Origin: a virus
Taxonomy: Duplodnaviria; Caudoviricetes
Reading direction: 5' to 3' (one strand)
IMG/VR virus record: IMGVR_UViG_3300038673_000807
Span: 1-28,007 of that record
Length of the DNA: 28,007 nt
The notes beneath the pieces were generated by a model. That model was not told where the DNA came from. It was given only the letters and a program-made list of their open reading frames with translations, and did no database searches. The translations under genes were made by a program, and so were the position numbers. Shown here piece by piece: positions 291-18,048 of this stretch. The number at the start of each line of letters is the position of its first letter. The first letter of the stretch is position 1.

Positions 291-401
291 GTAGTTGCCG
301 GCAATACAAATCACGCGTGGTGCGTGAATTTCAATAACGGCAACGTGAACAACAACAATAAGGACAATAATAATTATGTGCGTCCGGTCCGTTCCAGCCA
401 G
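291..401 (+). repeat. DGR template repeat (TR)
   Basis: Reads VVAGNTNHAWCVNFNNGNVNNNNKDNNNYVRPVRSSQ with 13 AAC/AAT codons. This is the AW-x-V-x-F-x-x-G...YVRxVR pattern of CLec/DUF1566 variable regions, placed between avd and RT. Ends are approximate without the VR. Confidence 0.88.
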
Positions 402-1497
402 CGATTCAGATAATAGCGTTTTTTCTTACCGCAGTATCTATCAGCGATATCTTGAATGTCGTAAAAATAAGCGTAATTCAATTAACGCATTAAAATTTGA
501 GATAGACGCAGAAAGTAATCTACTTGAGCTGGAACATGAGCTTAAGTATAGGACTTATCGCCCTTCGCGCTCTATTTTATTCGCAGCAAAGAAGCCAAAA
601 CTTCGAGAGATTTTTGCCTCCGATTTTCGCGACCGTGTTGTGCATCATATATTAGTTCGGGAATTAGAAAATATTTGGGAACCGATTTTTATCCATGATT
701 CCTATGCCTGCAGAGTTGGAAAAGGTACACATAAGGCAGTTGTCCGTCTTAAGTCATTTCTATGTAAAATCACTAAAAACGGGAACATCAGGGCGTATTA
801 TCTGCAACTCGATATTAAGGATTTTTTTATATCAATTAATAAAAATATATTGTTCGAGATATTGAAAAAACGAGTTGCGGATCAGGACCTGCTTTGGCTC
901 ATTGAAACTGTACTATTTTGGGATTGTACAAAATCTTATATCGCCAAAGGGGATAAGAACCTATTACGAAATATTCCTAAAAACAAAAGTTTATTTGGAA
1001 AGGACAATCTCCGTGGTCTTCCAATCGGTAATTTAACAAGTCAGTTTTTCGCGAATGTATATCTTAATGAGCTTGATCAGTTCGTTAAACATAATCTCAA
1101 AGTTAACTATTATTTACGTTATGTCGATGACTTTGTGATCCTTAGTCATGATAAAAAACAGCTGGTGACGTTCAGAGAAGAGATCGGAAAATTTCTTACT
1201 AAAAAGCTTGTATTAAGGCTGCATCCGCGGAGAAGGAAACTTTCTTCGGTATCTTCTGGAATAAATTTCTTAGGATACATTGTCCGTCATAATTATGTTC
1301 TAGTCCGTCGTCGAGTAGTTAATAATTTGCGCCATAAACTGCACGATTTTGCTACATCTGGGATAAGGGATGATGGGAAATTGCGGGCGACTATTGCGTC
1401 TTATCTGGGGCATTTCCGCTTGGCAAATAGCTGGCGATTAACTAAAGAAATAATTGTTTATTTTGAAAAGATTGTTGGGAGCGATATTAAAAGATGA
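376..1497 (+). CDS. DGR reverse transcriptase
   Basis: 373 aa with RT motifs FRDRVVHH, LQLDIKDFF, GLPIGNLTSQFFANVYL (DGR-type IGxxxSQ), YVDDF and FLGY. No maturase or endonuclease extension. Confidence 0.93.
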   Translation: MCVRSVPASDSDNSVFSYRSIYQRYLECRKNKRNSINALKFEIDAESNLLELEHELKYRTYRPSRSILFAAKKPKLREIFASDFRDRVVHHILVRELENIWEPIFIHDSYACRVGKGTHKAVVRLKSFLCKITKNGNIRAYYLQLDIKDFFISINKNILFEILKKRVADQDLLWLIETVLFWDCTKSYIAKGDKNLLRNIPKNKSLFGKDNLRGLPIGNLTSQFFANVYLNELDQFVKHNLKVNYYLRYVDDFVILSHDKKQLVTFREEIGKFLTKKLVLRLHPRRRKLSSVSSGINFLGYIVRHNYVLVRRRVVNNLRHKLHDFATSGIRDDGKLRATIASYLGHFRLANSWRLTKEIIVYFEKIVGSDIKR

Positions 1498-1750: not shown

Positions 1751-2803
1751 ATGCCCAATATTAACGTAAAACATGCAATTTTGGAATTGCATATTGCTGA
1801 TTTAAAACCGTGGTCAGAAAATCCTCGCGGGATTGAGCAGGAGTCCATTGAAGGCCTTCGTGCCAGTCTGGAAAATTTTGGGCTGGTCGATTTCCCGGTT
1901 GTGAATAAACGTAATATGCAGGTCATTTCCGGGCATCAGAGGATTAAGGTTCTTCAGGCGGATGGGATTGAGGTAGTCCCTTGCGTAATGGTCGACCTTG
2001 ATGATATGGCTGCACAGACATTGGCCATAACGCTAAACAATCAGGAAATTGCCGGTTATTTTACGGCTGCACTCATTCCGATTCTGGAGCAAATGCGGAA
2101 GGAGATGCCAGAGGATTATATCAAACTTCGGCTTCAAGAATTACGAGAGGAGGTTGATCAGTTTGAAGTGGAAAAGACCGGTAACACACTTCCAGATGAT
2201 ATCCCACCGGCACCGAAAGAGACGATCACGAAGACTGGGGATTTATGGATTCTTGGTGATCATCGGCTTTTGTGCGGAAGCAGTACCAGCGCGGAGGATA
2301 TTGCCAGCCTGATGGATGGATTACAAGCGCAACTGCTGGCCACGGATCCACCGTACCTTGTTGACTATACTGGCAAGGATAGGCCAGGAGGCGGGAAGGA
2401 CTGGTCAGACACATATCACGAGGTTGATATTAAAGATGCCCGTGGATTCTTTCATTCATTTTTGTCTCTGGCTTTACGGAATATCGATCAGAACACAGCT
2501 ATTTATGTGTGGCATGCGGATCGGAGGTTTGAGCTGATCAATGATATCTTCCGGGATCTCGATATTCTTTTGCACCAACATATCATCTGGGTAAAGCCGT
2601 GTACGGTGATGACGTATTCAATTTATCCTTGGCGACATGAGCCGTGTCTTTTCGGTTGGCGCCGCGGGAGTAAACCGTTCTTCCGGCCATCGCGTAAGAA
2701 GATTGGATCGGTTTGGGTTGTGGACTTATTGAGGACGGGAGATCCGGAAGGCCCGGAATATTACAGTGATCTTTGGGAAGTTGATTGGGAGGTGTTGGCA
2801 TGA
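1751..2803 (+). CDS. ParB-N domain / N6-N4 DNA methyltransferase fusion, apparently C-terminally truncated
   Basis: N-terminal ParB-like NPR...VISGHQR, linker GDLWILGDHRLLCGSS, catalytic TDPPY, IIWVK and HEPCLFGW. It lacks the HPTxKP and FxGxG SAM-binding motifs. Confidence 0.85.
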   Translation: MPNINVKHAILELHIADLKPWSENPRGIEQESIEGLRASLENFGLVDFPVVNKRNMQVISGHQRIKVLQADGIEVVPCVMVDLDDMAAQTLAITLNNQEIAGYFTAALIPILEQMRKEMPEDYIKLRLQELREEVDQFEVEKTGNTLPDDIPPAPKETITKTGDLWILGDHRLLCGSSTSAEDIASLMDGLQAQLLATDPPYLVDYTGKDRPGGGKDWSDTYHEVDIKDARGFFHSFLSLALRNIDQNTAIYVWHADRRFELINDIFRDLDILLHQHIIWVKPCTVMTYSIYPWRHEPCLFGWRRGSKPFFRPSRKKIGSVWVVDLLRTGDPEGPEYYSDLWEVDWEVLA

Positions 2804-3138
2804 AAACTGATAAATGGGTTGCTTATTATGGCGCTAATAACGAGCACGAAACCTTTGACAGCTTTGAAAAAGCTAAAGGATGGTTGGAAGATCAATATGA
2901 CGAAGACAGGGGAGAAGGATTCTCGGAAGAAACTTGTTGTGGGGAAGATTTTATAGCTAAGATAACTCATAGGTCGAAGTTCGTTGAAACCGCAAACAGG
3001 GAAAAAGATGGATACAAATGGAATGAGGAGGCACAGGGATATTTTATCAACGGCGACTCAAATTGTGAGGAGTGGCTTTACTCTGACGAAATTGATTGCA
3101 TTGGCAATGTGATCTTGGAGGAGGTCTGCCATAATTAA
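2800..3138 (+). CDS. Hypothetical acidic phage protein
   Basis: ATG at 2800 overlaps the MTase stop (ATGA), with SD GGAGGT at 2788-2793. No recognisable motif. Confidence 0.65.
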   Translation: MKTDKWVAYYGANNEHETFDSFEKAKGWLEDQYDEDRGEGFSEETCCGEDFIAKITHRSKFVETANREKDGYKWNEEAQGYFINGDSNCEEWLYSDEIDCIGNVILEEVCHN

Positions 3139-6244: not shown

Positions 6245-6302
6245 GTCGTTACTACGCTGTAGTAACGACCCTATTGACAACACATATTTGTGCGGATAGT
6301 AT
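6245..6302 (+). promoter_or_regulatory. Sigma70-like promoter with upstream perfect palindrome
   Basis: GTCGTTACTAC-gct-GTAGTAACGAC (6245-6269), then TTGACA (6274-6279), a 17 bp spacer and TAGTAT (6297-6302). Confidence 0.7.
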
Positions 6303-6446: not shown

Positions 6447-7223
6447 ATGAAAAAGTTTATATTTATGGTGGTGGCACTGTTATTAATCCCAGGAATTTGT
6501 TTTGCACAAATGTCTTTCCGTCCCAGCGGAGGGTCGGCGGTATCAGGCACTGATACGTATGTTTGCTTCTTTGATGGCGCGTCGGCCTCCTGCTCTGATG
6601 CCGGGCTGGCTTACGATAAAAGCACGGACGAATTGACCGCCAAGGGGGGGATATTAGTCGGAGACGGGACAGACAAAGACGTGACGGTATTTACTGTTAA
6701 TATCGCAGGGACTGATGTCACTGGCAAGTGGAACCAGACAACCGGCCAGCTTGAGTTCAGCGTGCCGATCAAAGGGGGTGGGACCAGCAATACAATCAGC
6801 TTCGATGATGGGGCCAGCCCTGATACTGACGAGACAGTTATCGGGACTGTGATGCCTTTTACCGCCAACGAAAACCAGGGGTTTGGCGATGTGGTATATA
6901 TTAACGGTGACGGGGAAATGCAATTAGCGGATGCTGACGCCATTGCCAGTTCGTACGTTTTGGCGATGGCGACGGAGGATATAACCGCGGATTCCTCCGG
7001 CTTTTATTTGATGCCAGGCGGGATAGCCCGTGATGACACGTGGAATTGGACCGTTGGAGAACCGATTTACCTGTCCACAACCGGGACCACCGGGAACACC
7101 CTCACCCAAACTGCTCCCAGCGGGGAGGACGACGCCATTGTCATTATCGGTGTCGCAACTCATTCGGATCGGATGTACTTTTTCCCGCAATTAACAATTA
7201 TCGAATACACGGCAGGATCATAA
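6447..7223 (+). CDS. Signal-peptide protein with C-terminal capsid-cement/fibre-like domain
   Basis: SD AAGGAGG; N-terminus MKKFIFMVVALLLIPGICFA-Q. The C-terminal GDVVYI...ADADA...LAMATEDI...WTVGEPIYLSTT...LTQTAPSG...IIGVA pattern recurs in phage structural proteins. Confidence 0.7.
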   Translation: MKKFIFMVVALLLIPGICFAQMSFRPSGGSAVSGTDTYVCFFDGASASCSDAGLAYDKSTDELTAKGGILVGDGTDKDVTVFTVNIAGTDVTGKWNQTTGQLEFSVPIKGGGTSNTISFDDGASPDTDETVIGTVMPFTANENQGFGDVVYINGDGEMQLADADAIASSYVLAMATEDITADSSGFYLMPGGIARDDTWNWTVGEPIYLSTTGTTGNTLTQTAPSGEDDAIVIIGVATHSDRMYFFPQLTIIEYTAGS

Positions 7224-7224
7224 T

Positions 7225-8439
7225 ATGAAAAAAATTATCATTTTGTTGCTTTGTTTCTTTTTAACCTCAGCGTCCCCGGCGATGGCCGCAGATAGGTATT
7301 GGGTCGGGAATGGCGGGGACTGGTCGGATGATGACACCCATTGGGCGACGTCGTCAGGGGGAAGCCCTGCTGACGGGAATAAACCGACCGCATCGGATAA
7401 CTGTATTTTCGATGGCGATTCTTTTCCCTCTGCCAGCCAGACTGTAACGGTGAATGAGGCTGCTTATTGCCTTGACCTTGATTGGACCGAAGCTGAACAA
7501 TCTCCAACATTCGCTATAACAGGAGGACATTTATACGTCAGCGGATCACTTACGTTCATTGCCGATATGACAGTCTCTTCCGGGACAACGTATATGGTTG
7601 AGATGAACGGGTCCGGGACACACACAATTACCGCGGCTGGGCATCGGATTAATTATCTGTCATTTAACGGGACTGGAACATTCACAGCCCAAGACACATT
7701 AGAAACATCATCCGGAAGTGGTAGGAAGATTTATCTTAAAAAAGGGACCTTTGACGCCAATGATCAGAATATTATTTGTAACCAGTTCAGCGGAAATTAT
7801 ACATACACCAAGGTTTTATACATGGGTTCCGGGACATGGACGATCTATAACAGTTATCAAGCTTCTGATGGGTGGATCATGTCGGCCACGAATACGACCT
7901 TGTATCCGGAAACGTCTACTATATCTCTCGGGAAGCATGCTTCATCGTCCAGCTATGGTTTCTCCGGCGCTGGGTTGACATATAACAATCTCGTGATTGA
8001 GGGGGGTAACACAGACAGGGCAACCCCGATAAAAGGCAGCAACACATTTAACGCCCTAATGATAGAAGAAAACAACCTGGTTCATTTTACCGATGGCACG
8101 ACGCAGACGGTTACATCCCTTGTTGCAACCGGGGACGCATCTAACCCTATAACTTTAACCGGGAGCAGCACAGGCGGATGGACGATTTCTGACTCTGCCG
8201 GGACAAACTCCGTGAGCTATGCAAATATTTCCTATTCTACGGCAACAGGTGGGGCAACCTGGGACGCCGACGATGGGACAAATACCGATGGCGGGAATAA
8301 TAGCGGGTGGATATTTCCGTCATCTCCGCCTGCGGGTAATGTCGGCAAATTTATGGAGACAGACTGGGGGAATATAGGCACGATTGCAGAAGTATCCGTT
8401 GGCAATATTAAAAAATTAAACGAAGTGGCCGCACAATGA
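7225..8439 (+). CDS. Signal-peptide, G/S/T-rich beta-solenoid/adhesin-like protein
   Basis: N-terminus MKKIIILLLCFFLTSASPAMA-A, then YWVGNGGDWSD...HWATSSGG and repetitive beta-strand composition. Confidence 0.7.
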   Translation: MKKIIILLLCFFLTSASPAMAADRYWVGNGGDWSDDDTHWATSSGGSPADGNKPTASDNCIFDGDSFPSASQTVTVNEAAYCLDLDWTEAEQSPTFAITGGHLYVSGSLTFIADMTVSSGTTYMVEMNGSGTHTITAAGHRINYLSFNGTGTFTAQDTLETSSGSGRKIYLKKGTFDANDQNIICNQFSGNYTYTKVLYMGSGTWTIYNSYQASDGWIMSATNTTLYPETSTISLGKHASSSSYGFSGAGLTYNNLVIEGGNTDRATPIKGSNTFNALMIEENNLVHFTDGTTQTVTSLVATGDASNPITLTGSSTGGWTISDSAGTNSVSYANISYSTATGGATWDADDGTNTDGGNNSGWIFPSSPPAGNVGKFMETDWGNIGTIAEVSVGNIKKLNEVAAQ

Positions 8440-11400
8440 GATTAAGAACAATTATTTTTATACTCTGCGCTCTTTTAATATCGTCAACGATCTGTTTCTC
8501 CGCCCCCGATAGCGTTGATAAGTTCTGCGGGTGGAATGATCTGCAAACAGCCAGTCCTAAGGCCGTGCTGGGTAACAATTCTGATGCGTGTGATCCACTA
8601 ATTTTGACTGATGTGGGGGCGTTCGCCGGGGGAAATTATGCTTGGCAATCCTTGCAACCTAACGTTGATAAGTGGATGTTCTGGGTTATACGGGCAAACA
8701 CTGACGATCAAATATTTGTCTGGCCCTCTGATCGGCTTGGGGTAGAGGTGCAAACCAACGGGGACATGGAACTCGAATCGTCCTGGTACGATTACGGGAC
8801 ACCAACAACCAACGAACGCAGCTCCGCGCAGACAATCCCCTGGGGGTCGTATTCCCGGCACGTTGTCGGCGACGCGGATGGGGACGGCATTGTCCAGACA
8901 GGCCTCCAGATCGACAAATACGAGACTGACTGCTCAACCGATCACAGTTCAAGCTGGAGTGGGGAGTATATGACAACAGGGTATATTTATATCGTGTCAG
9001 GCACTCCACGGATTCAAATGTTAGAAAACGACGGGACGACCCTAGAAGTCAACGAGGACATCGGGGATGATGCTATTACTGGCCGTTGGCAGGGGTTCCG
9101 GACCGGGCGCAGTGAGCAGTTTAATAACGTAACGTTCACAGCTGTTACGATTGACAGTGACACAGACACAATTTCTGCCGCGAGTATCCCTGACACGAAT
9201 GATGAGGTGGTGTTCAGGGCTACGACCACGATGCCGACGGGCCTTGACACTTGCACCACTTATTATGTCATTAACGCCGGTGACGGGACGTTCCAGATTT
9301 CAGAAACCAGGGGCGGCAGCGCGTTTAATTTCTCTGACACCGGGACAGACGTCGAATGGGGAGGGACCGGGGAAGTGAGGTTTGTTTGTTCCGGCGGGCC
9401 GTGTGAGTTTTATTTGGACGACGTTACGGTAGCGGAATATGAGTATGGTATGTACACCTATAATTATCCGGACTTGACGACATCCCCCGGTCCCTACTCT
9501 GGGACCGGGAATTATTATACCACTTACAACGAGGGCACGGATGAATACGCTGTTTATCGGGGGTGGCAGAAGGAATATTTCGCGAGTTTAAAGAGATGGG
9601 CCTTCGTTAACCCGATGGACAACTTTCATATCATACGGACCCTCAATAATTACAATGCCAGTCTATCCGACGGGGTGGATTTTAACGGGCTCTCGTTTAA
9701 GGGCAACTGGACGGCCAACCCCAGGGCTCCATTGCTCTCCAGTAACGCGGCTCTGATCTACTTCAACGCAGGATTTAAAGCTATGGGGTGGAACGCCGTT
9801 GGCGCGAATCTGTCCCGATACGATTATGATGACGACTGGAACCCCCCTGTCTATGGCGTCATGCCGCAGATAAGACAGGTGCGGCTTCAAAATGTTAATA
9901 AGGCAGATATCGGGAGGTTAAAGTTTGGGATAAGCAGCTCCACGCACACGATGGACAACCGCTGGCCGGACGTGTTCGACCCACAATGGGCCGAGCATTG
10001 GGAAGATGGGACTATTGCCCGAGATTATATCCTGGGGACGGCTGACGGGGACACCACAAATGGGGAGTTCCGTCAGCAAACGACCCAAAACGCTGTGCAG
10101 TTTGATGTCACTCCGTACATAGACACCGCTTTACAAACGCTCGCAAACCCGTATGTTATCGGATGGGACACGGCGGAAGAACCCGAAGGAATCATGTCAT
10201 ATAACATTATGGGGTATATGATTATGATTTCTCACCCGACAGAGGGGACAAGTTCCACCGACGGAGTTAACGACACAAAAGCGTTTGCCGTTAATTATTT
10301 GAGGGGTTATTACAGTGCAGGGGACGAAGATACGTTTGTGGCTAATATCAGCGAGGATGGGGCTAATCAAATAACAATTCATAGTTCATGGTCTACCGTC
10401 CCTGGGTATGTTTCGGCGGCGAAAGACGCGGCGGCGCTTGCGGCGCTCAACGCATCTTGGGGGACAACATACTCGGGTTGGGAAGAGGTGTATTACGAGG
10501 ACGGGGATGATGATGTTGATAGATATGCGACAGGAAAAGACGCAAATGCCGGGTTTGAAGCGGCCCTGGTTGCCGCAGGCAACTCCGGGTGTGCGTGGGA
10601 TAATGATTCGTTCCGTTGCTCCTGGGATTATCAGACGGCCAGTGAGCAGATCGAGGTTGACCTTGACCATATCCATGCCGGATATGGGCGCTATTGGACA
10701 CAGTTCATCCACCAATATTTTTTTGGTGAAAATGGGCAAATGCACGGGCAGAAGGTTAATTTCGGCCCAGGATTCGATAAGTTTTGGGGCTGGCTGCACG
10801 GGATGAAGTCTAAAGATGAAACGGAATATTACGTTGACCTGTACGCCCCTGGCGGGGCATGGGGCGGCGAGTATGGCGTTTATGAGGACTCGACCCCGGC
10901 TAAACCTAACCGCGTAACTGACTGGATTGAATGGCTGGGGCTCCCGGTATTTTTAGAAACCGGATGGATCAGGTGTGAGCCGGATTCCGCTATGGGGTTC
11001 AAAAACCCGGACGGCACGTCTCGCACAATAGACGCGGTGTACAAGCGCAACGACGCGGACAAAGCCGTGTACATCGGCGGCAGGACGAAGGGGTGGGACT
11101 GCGACGCAACGATATACGCTGACATCGGCGATTACTGCGCCGAAGACGTCGAAGATCACAGAATAACCGAAGATGCGACGGTGTACTGGAATTGCTCGGA
11201 CCCGCTGGACTCTGAAACCTGCGAAGATTCCGGGACATTGTTCTGGCAATTCATCAAGTTAACAGACCAACCGTACAGCAAATATACTTTTTTTAATCGG
11301 TACATTATTATTGCTGACCAGGCGTCAATAGGGAATTTGGATGACAATGATCTCGTTACCGACGGGGTGTCAAAGATGTTCACGATTATTGGGTCCCCTT

Positions 11401-12200
11401 ACCGGGCATCGATGATCGTTGACGAGGGCGCGAATTTTGATACAAACTGGAATAACCCTAACGCACTCGATCACACCAATAATATGTATTCTTTGGTTGA
11501 TGAGGACGATCCGGCCCCGCGCAGATATTACCACCTTGCACATGGGTTTGCTACGGAGCGGTCCCTGATATGTTGGAAGGAGTGGAGCAACGAACCGCCG
11601 GCAGGGTGGAAGGGCTGGAGTGAATCGAGTTTTGTAGGGTTCCGGGATGTCAACCCTGGCGACCATTACCATTTAAACTATATCGGCGTTGATCGCGCTG
11701 AATGGCTTGATATTTATTACGAGACGCTGACACAGGAAGACACCGCAGATATGGTGGTCTATCTGTTTAAACAAGCATTTGGCGATGTGTGGCGGGACTC
11801 TGCCGGTGACCAGCTGCTGATTGGGTTAGCGCACTTTGGGCCGATAGACGACGGATTCAACGACTCCAATTATGGCGGGGACTACGCAGCGACAACCGGC
11901 GCAGAGGTCGCGCAGTTTGGGTACTTGTCAAACAAGTGCAACTGGTACGGGCCTGATCCCACCTTAGAAAGCCCAACCGTGTTAATCGAGGCCACACGTT
12001 TGGGTAGGGACGGAATAGCGGAAACGCAGGATGATGAGGTGGGGGACTACGGGGACAGAGTTTCTGGGGTGAAGGAGTTCTTTACTACGATATATCAATG
12101 GATGGCTGAAGGGTATGAGGAGGAAGAGGAGGAAGACCTAGAGTGGTCCGGGGTGATTATTGACGGGACAATCTTGCAAAAAACAATACTGGGGAATTAA
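8436..12200 (+). CDS. Large secreted multidomain protein with putative GH-A clan (GH50/beta-agarase-like) glycoside hydrolase region
   Basis: Signal peptide MRLRTIIFILCALLISSTICFS-A. Ordered motifs RWAFVNP, MGWNAVG, WPDVFDPQW, NPYVIGWDTAEEP, LNASWGTTYSGW, PVFLE and LIGLAHFGPIDD; very acidic. Confidence 0.6.
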   Translation: MRLRTIIFILCALLISSTICFSAPDSVDKFCGWNDLQTASPKAVLGNNSDACDPLILTDVGAFAGGNYAWQSLQPNVDKWMFWVIRANTDDQIFVWPSDRLGVEVQTNGDMELESSWYDYGTPTTNERSSAQTIPWGSYSRHVVGDADGDGIVQTGLQIDKYETDCSTDHSSSWSGEYMTTGYIYIVSGTPRIQMLENDGTTLEVNEDIGDDAITGRWQGFRTGRSEQFNNVTFTAVTIDSDTDTISAASIPDTNDEVVFRATTTMPTGLDTCTTYYVINAGDGTFQISETRGGSAFNFSDTGTDVEWGGTGEVRFVCSGGPCEFYLDDVTVAEYEYGMYTYNYPDLTTSPGPYSGTGNYYTTYNEGTDEYAVYRGWQKEYFASLKRWAFVNPMDNFHIIRTLNNYNASLSDGVDFNGLSFKGNWTANPRAPLLSSNAALIYFNAGFKAMGWNAVGANLSRYDYDDDWNPPVYGVMPQIRQVRLQNVNKADIGRLKFGISSSTHTMDNRWPDVFDPQWAEHWEDGTIARDYILGTADGDTTNGEFRQQTTQNAVQFDVTPYIDTALQTLANPYVIGWDTAEEPEGIMSYNIMGYMIMISHPTEGTSSTDGVNDTKAFAVNYLRGYYSAGDEDTFVANISEDGANQITIHSSWSTVPGYVSAAKDAAALAALNASWGTTYSGWEEVYYEDGDDDVDRYATGKDANAGFEAALVAAGNSGCAWDNDSFRCSWDYQTASEQIEVDLDHIHAGYGRYWTQFIHQYFFGENGQMHGQKVNFGPGFDKFWGWLHGMKSKDETEYYVDLYAPGGAWGGEYGVYEDSTPAKPNRVTDWIEWLGLPVFLETGWIRCEPDSAMGFKNPDGTSRTIDAVYKRNDADKAVYIGGRTKGWDCDATIYADIGDYCAEDVEDHRITEDATVYWNCSDPLDSETCEDSGTLFWQFIKLTDQPYSKYTFFNRYIIIADQASIGNLDDNDLVTDGVSKMFTIIGSPYRASMIVDEGANFDTNWNNPNALDHTNNMYSLVDEDDPAPRRYYHLAHGFATERSLICWKEWSNEPPAGWKGWSESSFVGFRDVNPGDHYHLNYIGVDRAEWLDIYYETLTQEDTADMVVYLFKQAFGDVWRDSAGDQLLIGLAHFGPIDDGFNDSNYGGDYAATTGAEVAQFGYLSNKCNWYGPDPTLESPTVLIEATRLGRDGIAETQDDEVGDYGDRVSGVKEFFTTIYQWMAEGYEEEEEEDLEWSGVIIDGTILQKTILGN

Positions 12201-12307
12201 TGGGCGGATCGGTGGATCATAAATGTTTACTACGAACTTGCACCGAAGAAGTCATTTGGTGGCGTCATAATCAGTGGCGCAGTCATGTAATAACATAAGG
12301 AGCCGAA

Positions 12308-13360
12308 ATGAAAAAGAAGCTTTTTGTGATTATGATCTTATTGTTTTGTTCAGTTCCGCCAGCTGATGCATTGGTAAGAAATATCCAAGATAACTATCAA
12401 CTGATATATACGATTTTGGATGTTTATGGTGATCCCGTAGAATCGGAAACGGTTACTATTAAAATCAAACGCATGTCAGATGGATATTGGCTTGATTTTA
12501 ATGACTCAACATTTAAGGCGTCTGGATGGACAAGCAAATCAACTACTTTGTCCGAAGATACTACGGAAGGATATTATTATTATACTTTTGATCCTCCTTC
12601 CAGTGAAACCGGGGCAGAAGAATATATTTTTCTGGTTGATAATGCCAGTGCTACTTATGGCGATCATCAGAGTCTAGTAATTTCCTATCAAAATATTGGT
12701 ACAGCAGTAGATACAGACATTGACTCTCAACTCGCTACTATTCAGGCTGACCTCGATAATCCGAGTCAATACAAAGCTGATGTTTCCGGACTGGCAACCG
12801 CATCTGCTTTGGCGACTACACAGGCGGATCTAGATAACCCAGATCAATACAAAGCGACAGGATTTTCAACGCATAGCGTATCCGACATCGTTACTGCTAT
12901 GCAAGCAGTGTCTGATGATTTTAAAGCTGATGGTGCCGGGTTAGCGACTGCTGCCGCCTTGGCGACCTCACAGACTGACCTCGATAATCCGAGTCAATAC
13001 AAAGCAACCGGATTCAGCACCCATTCAGCAGCGGATATTTGGGCAGTCGCCACCAGAGAGATTACCGGAGGGACTATTACAACGGTAAGCGATAAGACCG
13101 GATATTCTTTAAGTTCGGCCGGCATCGATGCCATCTGGGATGAAGTGCAGAGCGGGCATAGTTCATCTGGGACTTTTGGGTATTACCTCGATAGCCAGGT
13201 TAGTGCAGCTGGCGGGGATCCGTGGAATACTAGTTTGCCTGGGGCGTATACAGGAACTCAGGCCGGGAAGTTGTTGTCAGATATTTATGACGCCACTGAT
13301 GGCAATATGGAAAGCGGCAGTTATACCGGTGTTGAGAATTTGATTAGGAGAAATCGATAG
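12308..13360 (+). CDS. Signal-peptide protein with Ig-like N-terminus and repeated stalk, putative fibre/collar protein
   Basis: SD AAGGAG; N-terminus MKKKLFVIMILLFCSVPPADA-L; three LATxQxDLDNPxQYKA repeats, then ADIW / DAIWDE / GDPW motifs. Confidence 0.7.
   Translation: MKKKLFVIMILLFCSVPPADALVRNIQDNYQLIYTILDVYGDPVESETVTIKIKRMSDGYWLDFNDSTFKASGWTSKSTTLSEDTTEGYYYYTFDPPSSETGAEEYIFLVDNASATYGDHQSLVISYQNIGTAVDTDIDSQLATIQADLDNPSQYKADVSGLATASALATTQADLDNPDQYKATGFSTHSVSDIVTAMQAVSDDFKADGAGLATAAALATSQTDLDNPSQYKATGFSTHSAADIWAVATREITGGTITTVSDKTGYSLSSAGIDAIWDEVQSGHSSSGTFGYYLDSQVSAAGGDPWNTSLPGAYTGTQAGKLLSDIYDATDGNMESGSYTGVENLIRRNR
12747..13005 (+). repeat. Intragenic direct repeats
   Basis: Exact 31-nt CTGACCTCGATAATCCGAGTCAATACAAAGC at 12747-12777 and 12975-13005, with a diverged copy near 12825-12855. 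Confidence 0.85.
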
Positions 13361-14103
13361 TGAGCGTAAAAAATATTATTCAGATAACATTAAACGAGCC
13401 GTTTAATGCGACGATCTTTATCCCGGATTCATCCTTAGGAGAAACAGTAACGTATCGGATTATTCGGGCAATCTCGGGAGATATTTTTGCTTCTGGAAAT
13501 GCGACGTTCCTCGGAGGCAATCAATGGAAGGTCCGATTTACCCCTAACATAGCTGATGTGTATATTGTGGAGGTTTCCTGGGGAGACATCAAGTACACAC
13601 GAATATTTAGTACGCAGACGTCACCTACTGTTAATCAGTTGTATACGATGGTTGTCGCTATCCCCGATTCTCAATCTGGCGATTCTGTCGCGTATGTGCT
13701 TTATCGCGCATCTGATGGGCAGGCTTTATTGTCTGGAGTGATGACACATGTCACAGGGATCCATTGGAAAACATCATTTTCCCCGGCGTCTGCCGGAACC
13801 TTTACTCTCGAGGTGACAGATTCAACTCTTAGTGTTGTTCACTCTGTCGAGGTCGTTGTTGCTGCCGTTACCGTAGTTACGACAGCTGCAATAACAGCCG
13901 CTACTTTATTGGCGCAGGTGAATTCCGCTATAAATGCCCGGATGAGCGGAGGCGCTGTCCATTCGTATACTATGCCGGGCGGGCGGAATCTGCAGTACAT
14001 TCCATTGGCGGAGTTGTTGCAATTGCGAACACAATTACAGTTGGAAGTTACTAACGCATCGGGTGGGGCGAGAAGTTACGCTCAATTTGTAGATCCGATA
14101 TAA
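13360..14103 (+). CDS. gpW-like head completion protein fused to two tandem Ig-like domains
   Basis: The C-terminal LAQVNSAINARMSGGAVHSYTMPGGRNLQYIPLAELLQLR is gpW-like and lies directly before the portal. Two repeats of IPDS..G..V.Y...RA..G....SG......G..WK..F.P precede it. Confidence 0.7.
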   Translation: MSVKNIIQITLNEPFNATIFIPDSSLGETVTYRIIRAISGDIFASGNATFLGGNQWKVRFTPNIADVYIVEVSWGDIKYTRIFSTQTSPTVNQLYTMVVAIPDSQSGDSVAYVLYRASDGQALLSGVMTHVTGIHWKTSFSPASAGTFTLEVTDSTLSVVHSVEVVVAAVTVVTTAAITAATLLAQVNSAINARMSGGAVHSYTMPGGRNLQYIPLAELLQLRTQLQLEVTNASGGARSYAQFVDPI

Positions 14104-14118
14104 AAAAATGAGGTATTG

Positions 14119-15756
14119 ATGAAAAAAAATACACGAGAATATAAGTTATCTGCAGGAGATAGGATCGGAGAAGCATTTGACCGTTTTGTAGGTATATTTT
14201 CTCCGGAAAAGGCCATGAAAAGGCAATTCTTTCGTAGATCCATGATGGCTGCATCGTCATACCGATCGGCAGATAGTAAACGGATCCGGGGGAGCTGGAT
14301 CCCTGGTGGCGGGTCAGCTGATGCTGATCTGTTGCCAAACTTGTCGATTTTGCGGGAACGCAGCCGGGATTTGAACCGTAATGATCCGCATGCATCAGGA
14401 ATCACGTCTACGGTAACAATCAATTCCATCGGCACCGGGATTCGGCCACAAAGCCGGGTTGATCATAAATATATTGGGATTGAGGAAAGTAAGGCCGTTG
14501 AATTTCAACGTGCGGCCGAGCGGGCATGGCGCAAGTGGGTGCCGGTGGCCGATGCTGGGCAGAGGTTAGATTTTTACGCGATGCAGGCATTGATCGATCG
14601 GCAAATTTTAGAAAATGGGGAGGCTATTATTATCCCGGTCGCGATTAAAAGAAGTTTTACTCCGTATTTATTGGCACTGCAATGTATTGAAGCGGACCGG
14701 TTAGGAACACCGTCGGATAAGCGCGGTGATAAAAATATTCGGGATGGTGTTGAGATCGGCCAATATGGGGAGCCGGTTGCGTATTATATCCGTAAGACTC
14801 ACCCGGGAGATTGGCAATACAATAAATATAATTCGGACTCAGCACAATATGTCCGGTATCCGGCGCGTAATGAATTGGGACGGTTGAATGTGATCCATCT
14901 CTATGAGGTTAAACGTCCGGGACAAACCCGCGGAGAACCGTTTTTTGCGGCAGTTATGAACTACTTTAAGGATAAGGCCGAATATATGGAAGCGGAATTA
15001 GTAACGGCTAAAGTTGCCGCATGCTTTTCAGCGGTTGTTAAGAAAACTGATCCCTTGGGTGCGGCTATGGTCGGCAGAACTACAGTAGGTGCCGACAATA
15101 AACGGCTAGAAACCCTGGAACCGGGGACGTTTGAATATTTGCAGCCAGGGGAAGATATCACACAGATTAATCCGGCCAGACAGGGGAATACTTTCGAACC
15201 GTTTATTGAGACTATTTTACGGGCGATTTCTGCCGGATTGAATCTTCCTTATGAGGTTGTGGCTAAAGATTTTAGCCGGACAAATTACAGCTCTGCCCGG
15301 GCAGCATTGCTGGAGGCGCGAAGATATTTTCGGACACGGCAGGAATTTATGGGTAGACGGTTTTGTCAGCCGGTTTGGGAGATGCAGGTAGAGGAGGCGT
15401 ATTTGATGGGTGAATTACCGATTTTGGATTTTTATAAAAATCGGTCGGATTATACTACAGCGAGGTGGATCTCTCCGGGCTGGGGGTGGGTAGATCCGAC
15501 CAAAGAAGTTGATGCGGCTCGTAGCGCGGTTGAAGGGCATCTGTCAACTTTGGCCGATGAGACTGCAGCTTTGGGGTATGACTGGGAGGAAACATTAGAA
15601 CAGCTGGCCCGGGAGGAGAAGAAGAAAAAAGAGCTGGGACTGGAATCTAAACCACTAGCTAAATCCGGATCGAAGGACCCTAATAATCAGGAAAAAGAAG
15701 AGCCCGTGCCGGCTCGTCAGCGTCCGGCACCTAAAACCGAGGAAATATTATTATAA
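14119..15756 (+). CDS. Portal protein, lambda family
   Basis: LRERSRDLNRND, IEADRL, GVEIGQYGEPVAYYI, RPGQTRGEP, NYSSARAALLE and WVDPTKEV. Confidence 0.95.
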   Translation: MKKNTREYKLSAGDRIGEAFDRFVGIFSPEKAMKRQFFRRSMMAASSYRSADSKRIRGSWIPGGGSADADLLPNLSILRERSRDLNRNDPHASGITSTVTINSIGTGIRPQSRVDHKYIGIEESKAVEFQRAAERAWRKWVPVADAGQRLDFYAMQALIDRQILENGEAIIIPVAIKRSFTPYLLALQCIEADRLGTPSDKRGDKNIRDGVEIGQYGEPVAYYIRKTHPGDWQYNKYNSDSAQYVRYPARNELGRLNVIHLYEVKRPGQTRGEPFFAAVMNYFKDKAEYMEAELVTAKVAACFSAVVKKTDPLGAAMVGRTTVGADNKRLETLEPGTFEYLQPGEDITQINPARQGNTFEPFIETILRAISAGLNLPYEVVAKDFSRTNYSSARAALLEARRYFRTRQEFMGRRFCQPVWEMQVEEAYLMGELPILDFYKNRSDYTTARWISPGWGWVDPTKEVDAARSAVEGHLSTLADETAALGYDWEETLEQLAREEKKKKELGLESKPLAKSGSKDPNNQEKEEPVPARQRPAPKTEEILL

Positions 15757-17331: not shown

Positions 17332-18048
17332 ATGACTACTAGAAGTCCGAAGACATTTGTCGCCGGCGAAGCCCTTGAAGCATATCGCCGGGTTAAGTTG
17401 GATGCCAGCGGGAATGTCGTTTATTCCGACGCTGGAGAGGGGTATATCGGGTTTACGCTCGAACTCGTTGCGTCTGGGTCCCCGGTTGCCGTTGTGTTGA
17501 AGAATGATGCCACAACGTTTAAGGTTACAGCTGCCGAGGCTTTTGCGATTGCTGCTGTCCTGTACGGCGCGGATGACGGGAAAGTGCAGGACACAGCAGC
17601 TGGAAACCAGATCGGCACCGCATTGGAGGCGGCGACCGCTGACGGCGATGTGGTGGAAGCTTTAGCCGATCTTGGAGCCGGCGCTCAGGTGAACGGGGCC
17701 GGGGTCTTGAAGCAGGCAGACGGAGAGCCCGGATCTATACCTATTTTACTTCATAAACAGGGGATTACCGACGCCACCACATCCGTTACGATCGCTACCC
17801 CTGCTTTTGATGTCCGGATTGTCGATTGGTGGCTGATTTCCCGCGACACAACGGCCTCTAATATCAAGTTGGTTAATGATGCCACTGATATGACGGCTGT
17901 AAAAGCCAAGGGCACGGCAGATGACGCTATTGTCCGTGGTGGTGACATCATCGAAGCACAGCGCGATGTCGCTGCCGGAGATCCTATCAAGGTTAACGCC
18001 AGCGTTGCAGCAGCGTTTGATATTTTTGTCATGGCGATTAAAGTTTAA
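17332..18048 (+). CDS. Capsid cement/decoration protein (DUF2190-like) with C-terminal extension
   Basis: FVAGEALEAYRRVKL...IGTALEAATADGDVVE; lies between the protease and MCP. Confidence 0.8.
   Translation: MTTRSPKTFVAGEALEAYRRVKLDASGNVVYSDAGEGYIGFTLELVASGSPVAVVLKNDATTFKVTAAEAFAIAAVLYGADDGKVQDTAAGNQIGTALEAATADGDVVEALADLGAGAQVNGAGVLKQADGEPGSIPILLHKQGITDATTSVTIATPAFDVRIVDWWLISRDTTASNIKLVNDATDMTAVKAKGTADDAIVRGGDIIEAQRDVAAGDPIKVNASVAAAFDIFVMAIKV

Follow-up and report, generated by a model that had tools for sequence, protein, structure and literature searches.

A candidate exported neck fibre encoded ahead of an Ig-fused head-tail adaptor in a lambda-like tailed-phage record

Neck fibres and collar structures have been described in several tailed phages. 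In the cyanophage A-1(L) the fibre gp82-gp81-gp80 (8KEG) is encoded by genes in one operon, contains bead domains and a sugar-binding tip, and is anchored on a neck adaptor; in the accessible part of PMC10966104 it is suggested to self-assemble and then to hook onto the neck. The neck passage structure of lactococcal 936/TP901-1 phages is an optional collar-whisker with an N-terminal beta-sandwich, a stalk and a variable carbohydrate-binding or beta-helix tip, described as non-essential and present in 73/113 phages in the portion of PMC6669499 available to us. Roseophage R4C (8GTD) has a gpW-type adaptor with an N-terminal immunoglobulin-like (Ig) 'attachment' domain, encoded directly before the portal (accessible text of PMC10276861). 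The locus compared with these systems here is a cassette of four consecutive genes, A-D, in a 28-kb virus record with a lambda-like late region (Duplodnaviria; Caudoviricetes; IMG/VR record IMGVR_UViG_3300038673_000807). The whole stretch analyzed, positions 1 to 28,007 of that record, is referred to as the window. A sequence-only reading had placed four signal-type open reading frames (ORFs) between TerL/zinc finger and Ig-gpW/portal, and all four were found at that place. A-D are best read as neck (collar) fibres that would be exported to the periplasm and would dock on the virion at lysis, with a probability of roughly 0.6 on the sequence evidence given below.

The cassette shares with the A-1(L) fibre the single operon and a bead domain, and by prediction also a sugar-binding tip and an anchor on the neck adaptor. 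It differs in that gp82 was modelled from Met1 and 'signal peptide' occurs 0 times in the accessible part of PMC10966104, whereas A-D carry signals, and in that A-1(L) is a myophage with a gp5 15-mer as anchor site, whereas the window adaptor is an Ig-fused gpW. By analogy the cassette would work like the A-1(L) fibre but would fall outside that class, being made with signal peptides. The window adaptor (phrog_5774) has the features of the R4C type, namely a gpW-like C-domain, a gene before the portal and an N-terminal beta-sandwich extension; its profile matches the R4C adaptor at E 4e-4, restricted to the gpW part, and 'signal peptide' does not occur in the text of PMC10276861 to which we had access. 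The lactococcal structure differs in being one polypeptide in phages of a Gram-positive host, with no D-type tag or Ig hook and with 'signal peptide' 0 times in the available portion of PMC6669499.

Signal peptides were scored with a home-made test of n-region charge and hydrophobicity, not with SignalP. A-D all passed this rule (best 10-residue hydropathy 3.46-3.68, charge +2/+3), compared with 0/21 other ORFs scored in the window, the highest of which reached 1.91; the chance rate was 14/7,694 internal positions (0.18%). The basic n-region, hydrophobic h-region and small residues at -3/-1 that mark substrates of Sec and signal peptidase I are present in all four, and no lipobox, twin-arginine motif or internal membrane segment was found in A-D. 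The four proteins are predicted to be exported by Sec and processed by signal peptidase I, which would leave mature forms beginning with Q21 (A), A22 (B), A23 (C) and L22 (D).

In nine related phages the rule was passed by 25/45 ORFs in the slot occupied by the cassette and by 0/96 core genes. Among homologues, 18 of the best 120 (of 934) passed for B and 102 failed, most of the signal-less proteins starting right at the predicted cut site; 8/9 full-length homologues passed for C, with one borderline, and 3/120 for A. Of listed D proteins with the N-domain 43/57 passed, and both states exist in a second type of D protein (13/19 passing). The -3/-1 rule was satisfied in 43/44 N-extended D proteins vs 45% background. 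The fibre gene after J in prophage G211 has a 23-residue signal-like extension with an h-score of 2.06, below the cut-off, and six orthologues have the same mature start without the extension. In three protein families the signal is placed exactly ahead of the start of signal-less phage homologues. Because these share the mature start and D keeps the -3/-1 rule, the signals appear to be a maintained add-on to phage proteins that lack them elsewhere. Genes at tail-fibre positions also carry signals or signal-like extensions (L274:6290-7948 in G247, L246:10419-12536 in G004, L293:2620-3465 in G211 and L291:2457-5898 in G326), so the trait extends beyond the neck slot.

The signals might instead be leftovers of captured host adhesin genes, with cytoplasmic forms from internal starts building an ordinary neck fibre. 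A Met does stand beside the predicted cut site in both A and B, and the domains are common to host proteins; no Met was found near the cut site in the D consensus, however, divergent D proteins keep both signal and -3/-1 rule, and the structural neighbours of the D N-domain, adaptor proteins among them, are almost all viral. This explanation is considered very improbable. A gene for a YidD-like membrane insertion factor (PF01809) was noted at L251:6368-6592 in the D-bearing phage G003.

Scans with the D alignment gave 61 viral, 73 metagenome and 3 genome loci. D stands directly before an Ig-extended adaptor of any family, be it gpW, gp6/gp15 (PF05135), Mu gp36 (PF07030) or podovirus type, and the pair spans lambda-, HK97/SPP1-, Mu- and podovirus-type modules. 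The Ig domain was searched for with a local profile search of the collected loci and a single-protein scan (2 loci). A D-type gene was directly upstream in 23/25 distinct class-I Ig hits, to which the window adaptor aligns, these hits coming from collected loci mostly retrieved via D; a block like a diversity-generating retroelement (DGR) intervenes in one exception and D is frameshifted in the other. A comparison by hhalign relates the N-domain of D to the adaptor Ig (84%, E 7.5e-6), and the D profile gave no significant match in the PDB. Four classes of D tag were distinguished, and the tag class equalled the Ig class of the next gene in 30/30 loci, which is partly expected from linkage because the 3' end of D and the 5' end of the Ig adjoin in the DNA, the classes were defined after the data had been seen and the loci are related; the match is suggestive of pairing. 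The tag is retained by D proteins with another N-domain and by stalks of 137 to 963 aa, and at L044 a D-like gene that lacks a signal but bears a class-II tag lies ahead of a class-II adaptor. A short D orthologue is located at L192:9014-9547, with its Ig-gpW at L192:9550-10050.

D and the Ig adaptor thus appear to form the conserved core, and A-C to be swappable cargo replaced from phage to phage. The expectation of one conserved four-gene unit was not borne out, but neither are the genes sporadic, unlinked morons, D being tied to the Ig-fused adaptor across unrelated head-tail modules. The linkage of D to the adaptor could also be read as D remaining anchored in the inner membrane and tethering necks for membrane-bound assembly or lysis-free exit. 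With the cleavage rule satisfied almost throughout (43/44), a topology that would place mature D in the periplasm, away from the adaptor, and lysis genes kept in relatives, this is thought the least probable of the explanations weighed here.

The repeated stalk reported for D was also found, with DNA repeats at window 12734-13014. A 426-aa version of D (P0121, on a 28,646-bp contig) has 76 extra repeat residues relative to the window D, so either the repeat number varies or one assembly collapsed. At L245:10673-14187 (G004) a DGR-like block (Mtd-domain gene, reverse transcriptase, small genes) lies between D and Ig-gpW, and the reading frame of the G004 D continues that of a peptidase-like region upstream of it. 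An apparent fusion of D with the Ig adaptor at L119 was a frameshift artefact with an internal start and was not counted as evidence of fusion.

Pfam and NCBIfam gave nothing meaningful for A-D. The sole PDB match of A below E 0.05 was the A-1(L) neck fibre gp82 (8KEG; E 7e-4 to 2e-3 over ~40 residues), in which the C-domain of A aligned to gp82 residues 180-216. PF09956 cement and BppL_N domains occur in A homologues, and the cement/fibre-like domain proposed for A is retained. B was predicted as a right-handed beta-helix (model pLDDT 89.8), in keeping with the proposed beta-solenoid; structure comparison (VIA) gave Z 17.2 with Vag8 (rmsd 4.0, 304 aligned) and Z 15.5 with phi29 gp12, and Foldseek with B returned nothing below E 0.001. 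The modelled fold is taken as no indicator of function. Two signal-less members of the 934 B homologues are fused to Dit, signal-less homologues have a short repeat tail of this kind at the C-terminus too, and one homologue with a signal is located in the tail-fibre region of G326. The C profile matched only beta-agarases (GH50-type) in the PDB, weakly (best E 0.025) and colinearly, and within this weak match an invariant Glu lines up with their NE motif. C has nine full-length relatives, no Pfam match and Atlas matches all under 0.9; its model was unreliable (pLDDT 50.5) and Foldseek and VIA searches with it were uninformative. C weakly resembles a GH50-like glycanase, and the earlier assignment is kept at that strength.

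Contigs of a second study are near-identical to the window over 6618-12230 and diverge on both flanks, so B, C and the greater part of A would have moved as a block without D. The genes upstream of D differ per phage and include LamG lectins, CBM96, polysaccharide lyase/deacetylase, a YadA head, the Mtd N-domain and Big domains. A C-terminal beta-repeat tag on cargo was seen in 4/96 signal ORFs vs 5/1,948 others, a post hoc pattern that misses most C homologues. This mobility of A-B-C, the likeness of C to a glycanase, and the holin-like, lipoprotein and peptidase-like genes in the same slot of G004 and L120 would suit an export of A-C as free lysis aids or decoys (capsule clearing, receptor covering on debris), with at most D joining the neck. 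Such a role would leave A with a structural bead domain, signal-less B homologues fused to Dit and sharing the short repeat tail, and a signal-bearing B homologue among tail-fibre genes; it is judged improbable.

Gene coordinates are listed in Table 1. A-B, B-C and D-gpW abut or overlap, the D stop codon overlapping the gpW start, and a gap of 107 nt separates C from D. A sigma-70-like promoter (TTGACA-17-TAGTAT) lies at 6274-6302 and is preceded by a perfect palindrome at 6245-6269. The upstream motif and -35 were found in 14/27 tested relatives without slot signal genes, in which gpW and portal come next, and in 3/7 tested relatives with them. The promoter had been ascribed to the cassette itself; because the same motif occurs in insert-free relatives, it is instead the head operon's. 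From this promoter and the overlap of D with gpW, A-D look co-transcribed with portal and capsid.

Table 1. Features of the window discussed in the text
Feature	Coordinates	Strand	Description
Late-region gene order			TerS, TerL, Ogr-like zinc finger, A-D, extended gpW, portal, S49 protease, cement, capsid, long-tail module ending at J
Operator-like site and promoter	6245..6302	+	palindromic operator-like site and sigma-70-like promoter of head/tail operon
A	6447..7223	+	258 aa; signal peptide, fibre-like middle, C-terminal cement-like 'bead' domain
B	7225..8439	+	404 aa; signal peptide, right-handed beta-helix, short C-terminal repeat tag
C	8436..12200	+	1254 aa; signal peptide, several domains, candidate GH50-like glycoside hydrolase
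D	12308..13360	+	350 aa; signal peptide, Ig-like N-domain (residues ~22-130), repeat stalk
D C-terminal tag	13265-13357	+	conserved; D is the predicted anchor
Ig-Ig-gpW head-tail adaptor	13360..14103	+	247 aa, no signal; predicted hook for D
Portal, lambda-family	14116..15756	+	PF05136, E 1.7e-108; used to collect relatives

Lambdoid morons (lom, bor, HK97 gp15) are exported proteins inserted in the late operon and patchy among relatives; each comes with a separate promoter and terminator and is unconnected with the domains of its neighbour. The window cassette differs from them in using the operon promoter, in showing no terminator-like site between D and gpW, and in an adaptor that changes together with the insert. 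The coat proteins of filamentous phages are virion proteins with Sec/YidC signals, membrane-inserted and belonging to extruded single-stranded DNA phages, whereas A-D are predicted soluble appendages of a tailed double-stranded DNA phage.

Portal scans gave 91 loci, from which 22 were removed as duplicate or truncated. Slot signal genes were present in 4/4 class-I Ig-gpW loci and 0/65 others, in a portal-selected census of non-independent relatives; G004, a complete record and nearest to the window on a quick tree, is a fifth class-I case. D loci were found in a Candidatus Omnitrophota record and in a Planctomycetales record, and in Omnitrophota genomes D was matched in 8/401 and this portal clade in 28/401. 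Genome G247 contains a complete prophage, cassette included, flanked by host genes on a contig of 515 kb. Among 10 further prophages the slot cassette was present in G301 alone, 7 had no signal genes in the slot, and G326 and G211 had signal or signal-like genes near the tail. The cassette is optional, and most inspected prophages do not have it. A generalisation to all Omnitrophota phages was rejected on these counts (28/401, and 1/10 further prophages), and a single origin was unsupported, cassette phages being scattered over several branches of a quickly built portal tree whose backbone is weak. Judging from its relatives, the host of the window phage would be a diderm Omnitrophota. BamA was found in 5/5 host genomes with such prophages, so Sec export would end in the periplasm, and the phylum has peptidoglycan synthesis according to the accessible text of 10.64898/2026.06.07.730766. 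The relatives encode holin, SLT, lysozyme or DPBB proteins, with holin or muramidase genes kept.

B-type beta-helices (34/401 genomes) and part of C (2/401) match very long host frames, and in the available part of 10.64898/2026.06.07.730766 Omnitrophota giant proteins are mostly membrane- or signal-bearing. Because B-type domains also build giant host proteins, the main rival is lysogenic conversion: A-D would build an appendage or a glycanase complex at the surface of the lysogen or infected cell, never on the virion, and this would help a host-dependent Omnitrophota cell to attach to or digest a partner. The sigma-70-like promoter is compatible with this, but the promoter is that of the head operon, D overlaps gpW, and A-D have neither lipobox nor internal membrane segment. 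A surface complex would also leave unexplained why a cytoplasmic adaptor gained an Ig domain solely where D is present, and why signal-less counterparts occupy the same slot (L044, L103). It is regarded as unlikely.

In the favoured reading, an exported neck fibre, Sec would carry A-D into the periplasm of the diderm host late in infection, where signal peptidase I would remove the signals and the proteins would fold and pre-assemble. Holin would open the inner membrane and give D access to finished particles, and D would dock on the adaptor ring, with its C-terminal tag, an Ig-Ig contact or both engaging the Ig domains there. A would supply the beads of the fibre; B and C would serve as interchangeable tips that bind or cut sugars and aid adsorption through surface glycans. 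Given the matches of B-type domains in host genomes, these may plausibly have been captured from surface proteins of the host, which fold outside the cytoplasm. The earlier proposal of an exported appendage joining the virion at lysis therefore stands as the best-supported reading through the linkage of D to the Ig adaptor, without its four-gene unit.

Several points weigh against an exported neck fibre. Besides the limits on the tag-Ig match given above and the retrieval of most Ig-adaptor loci through D, the A-gp82 match is short, the L110 and L336 cassettes combine signal-bearing and signal-less genes, and lysis-type genes also occupy some slots. The B-type domains in Omnitrophota genomes, being mostly within very long frames, may serve at the cell surface. 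Signal-bearing B homologues show no Cys excess (0.64 vs 0.87 per 100 aa), and a search of five host genomes, which are incomplete assemblies, yielded neither DsbB nor VKOR; disulphide formation, usually the reason for export, was unsupported by either result.

Some features lie outside this argument. The whole stretch is covered near-identically by contigs of another public assembly (run X1, 30/30 bins), possibly the source sample. A reverse transcriptase (PF00078) at window 376-1497 is of a kind found beside bAvd and Lcl_C genes in the relative G003 and so is probably part of a DGR; no template or target for it was found inside the window, nor any DGR-type template/variable repeat pair among the repeat families listed for the window. 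The ParB-methyltransferase ORF at 1751-3138 is 350 aa vs ~430-445 aa in relatives, has an unrelated 117-aa ORF next to it and looks cut short by an insertion. The cement protein at 17332-18048 is 238 aa vs the usual 117 aa (~2x), and such long forms occur in many cassette phages and in some cassette-free ones too. Glycosyltransferase, methyltransferase, LicD and radical-SAM genes are among or near the structural genes of D-bearing phages (L108, L110, L112, L270 in G157, L251 in G003), and virion glycosylation is possible in several of these. Cassette-free Omnitrophota prophages G101, G220, G240 and G153 (L283, L284, L287, L297) have two similar genes of 361-405 aa directly after the tail-fibre genes, with cysteine motifs and radical-SAM-like by eye. 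In the cassette-free L102:7837-9642 and L104:15464-17350 the gpFII-like stopper forms the rear of a fusion whose first 500 residues are fibre-like.

A literature search, with most subscription papers and supplements outside reach, gave no account of Sec-exported virion appendages of tailed phages, nor did it turn up the export route or the portable tag/Ig pair. The appendage itself is a variant of known neck fibres. A wider view is put forward tentatively, at slightly less than even odds: virion completion in tailed phages of Omnitrophota may span two compartments through a portable hook-and-eye module, the D tag and an Ig on any adaptor. Lambda-, HK97/SPP1-, Mu- and podovirus-type phages would then fit periplasm-made, interchangeable fibres or glycanases onto the neck at lysis, with some cargo coming from a pool of domains that giant surface proteins of the host also use. 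The cytoplasm is the accepted site where tailed-phage particles are completed. The locus offers a small, named pair of predicted anchor and hook, four co-varying classes, four adaptor families and natural signal-less controls; the pair is expressible in E. coli and directly testable, and could serve to display exported proteins on phage particles. If a neck fibre is indeed exported by Sec, virion assembly would gain a finishing step in the periplasm, and a signal peptide encoded in a prophage late operon would no longer be default evidence of lysogenic conversion.

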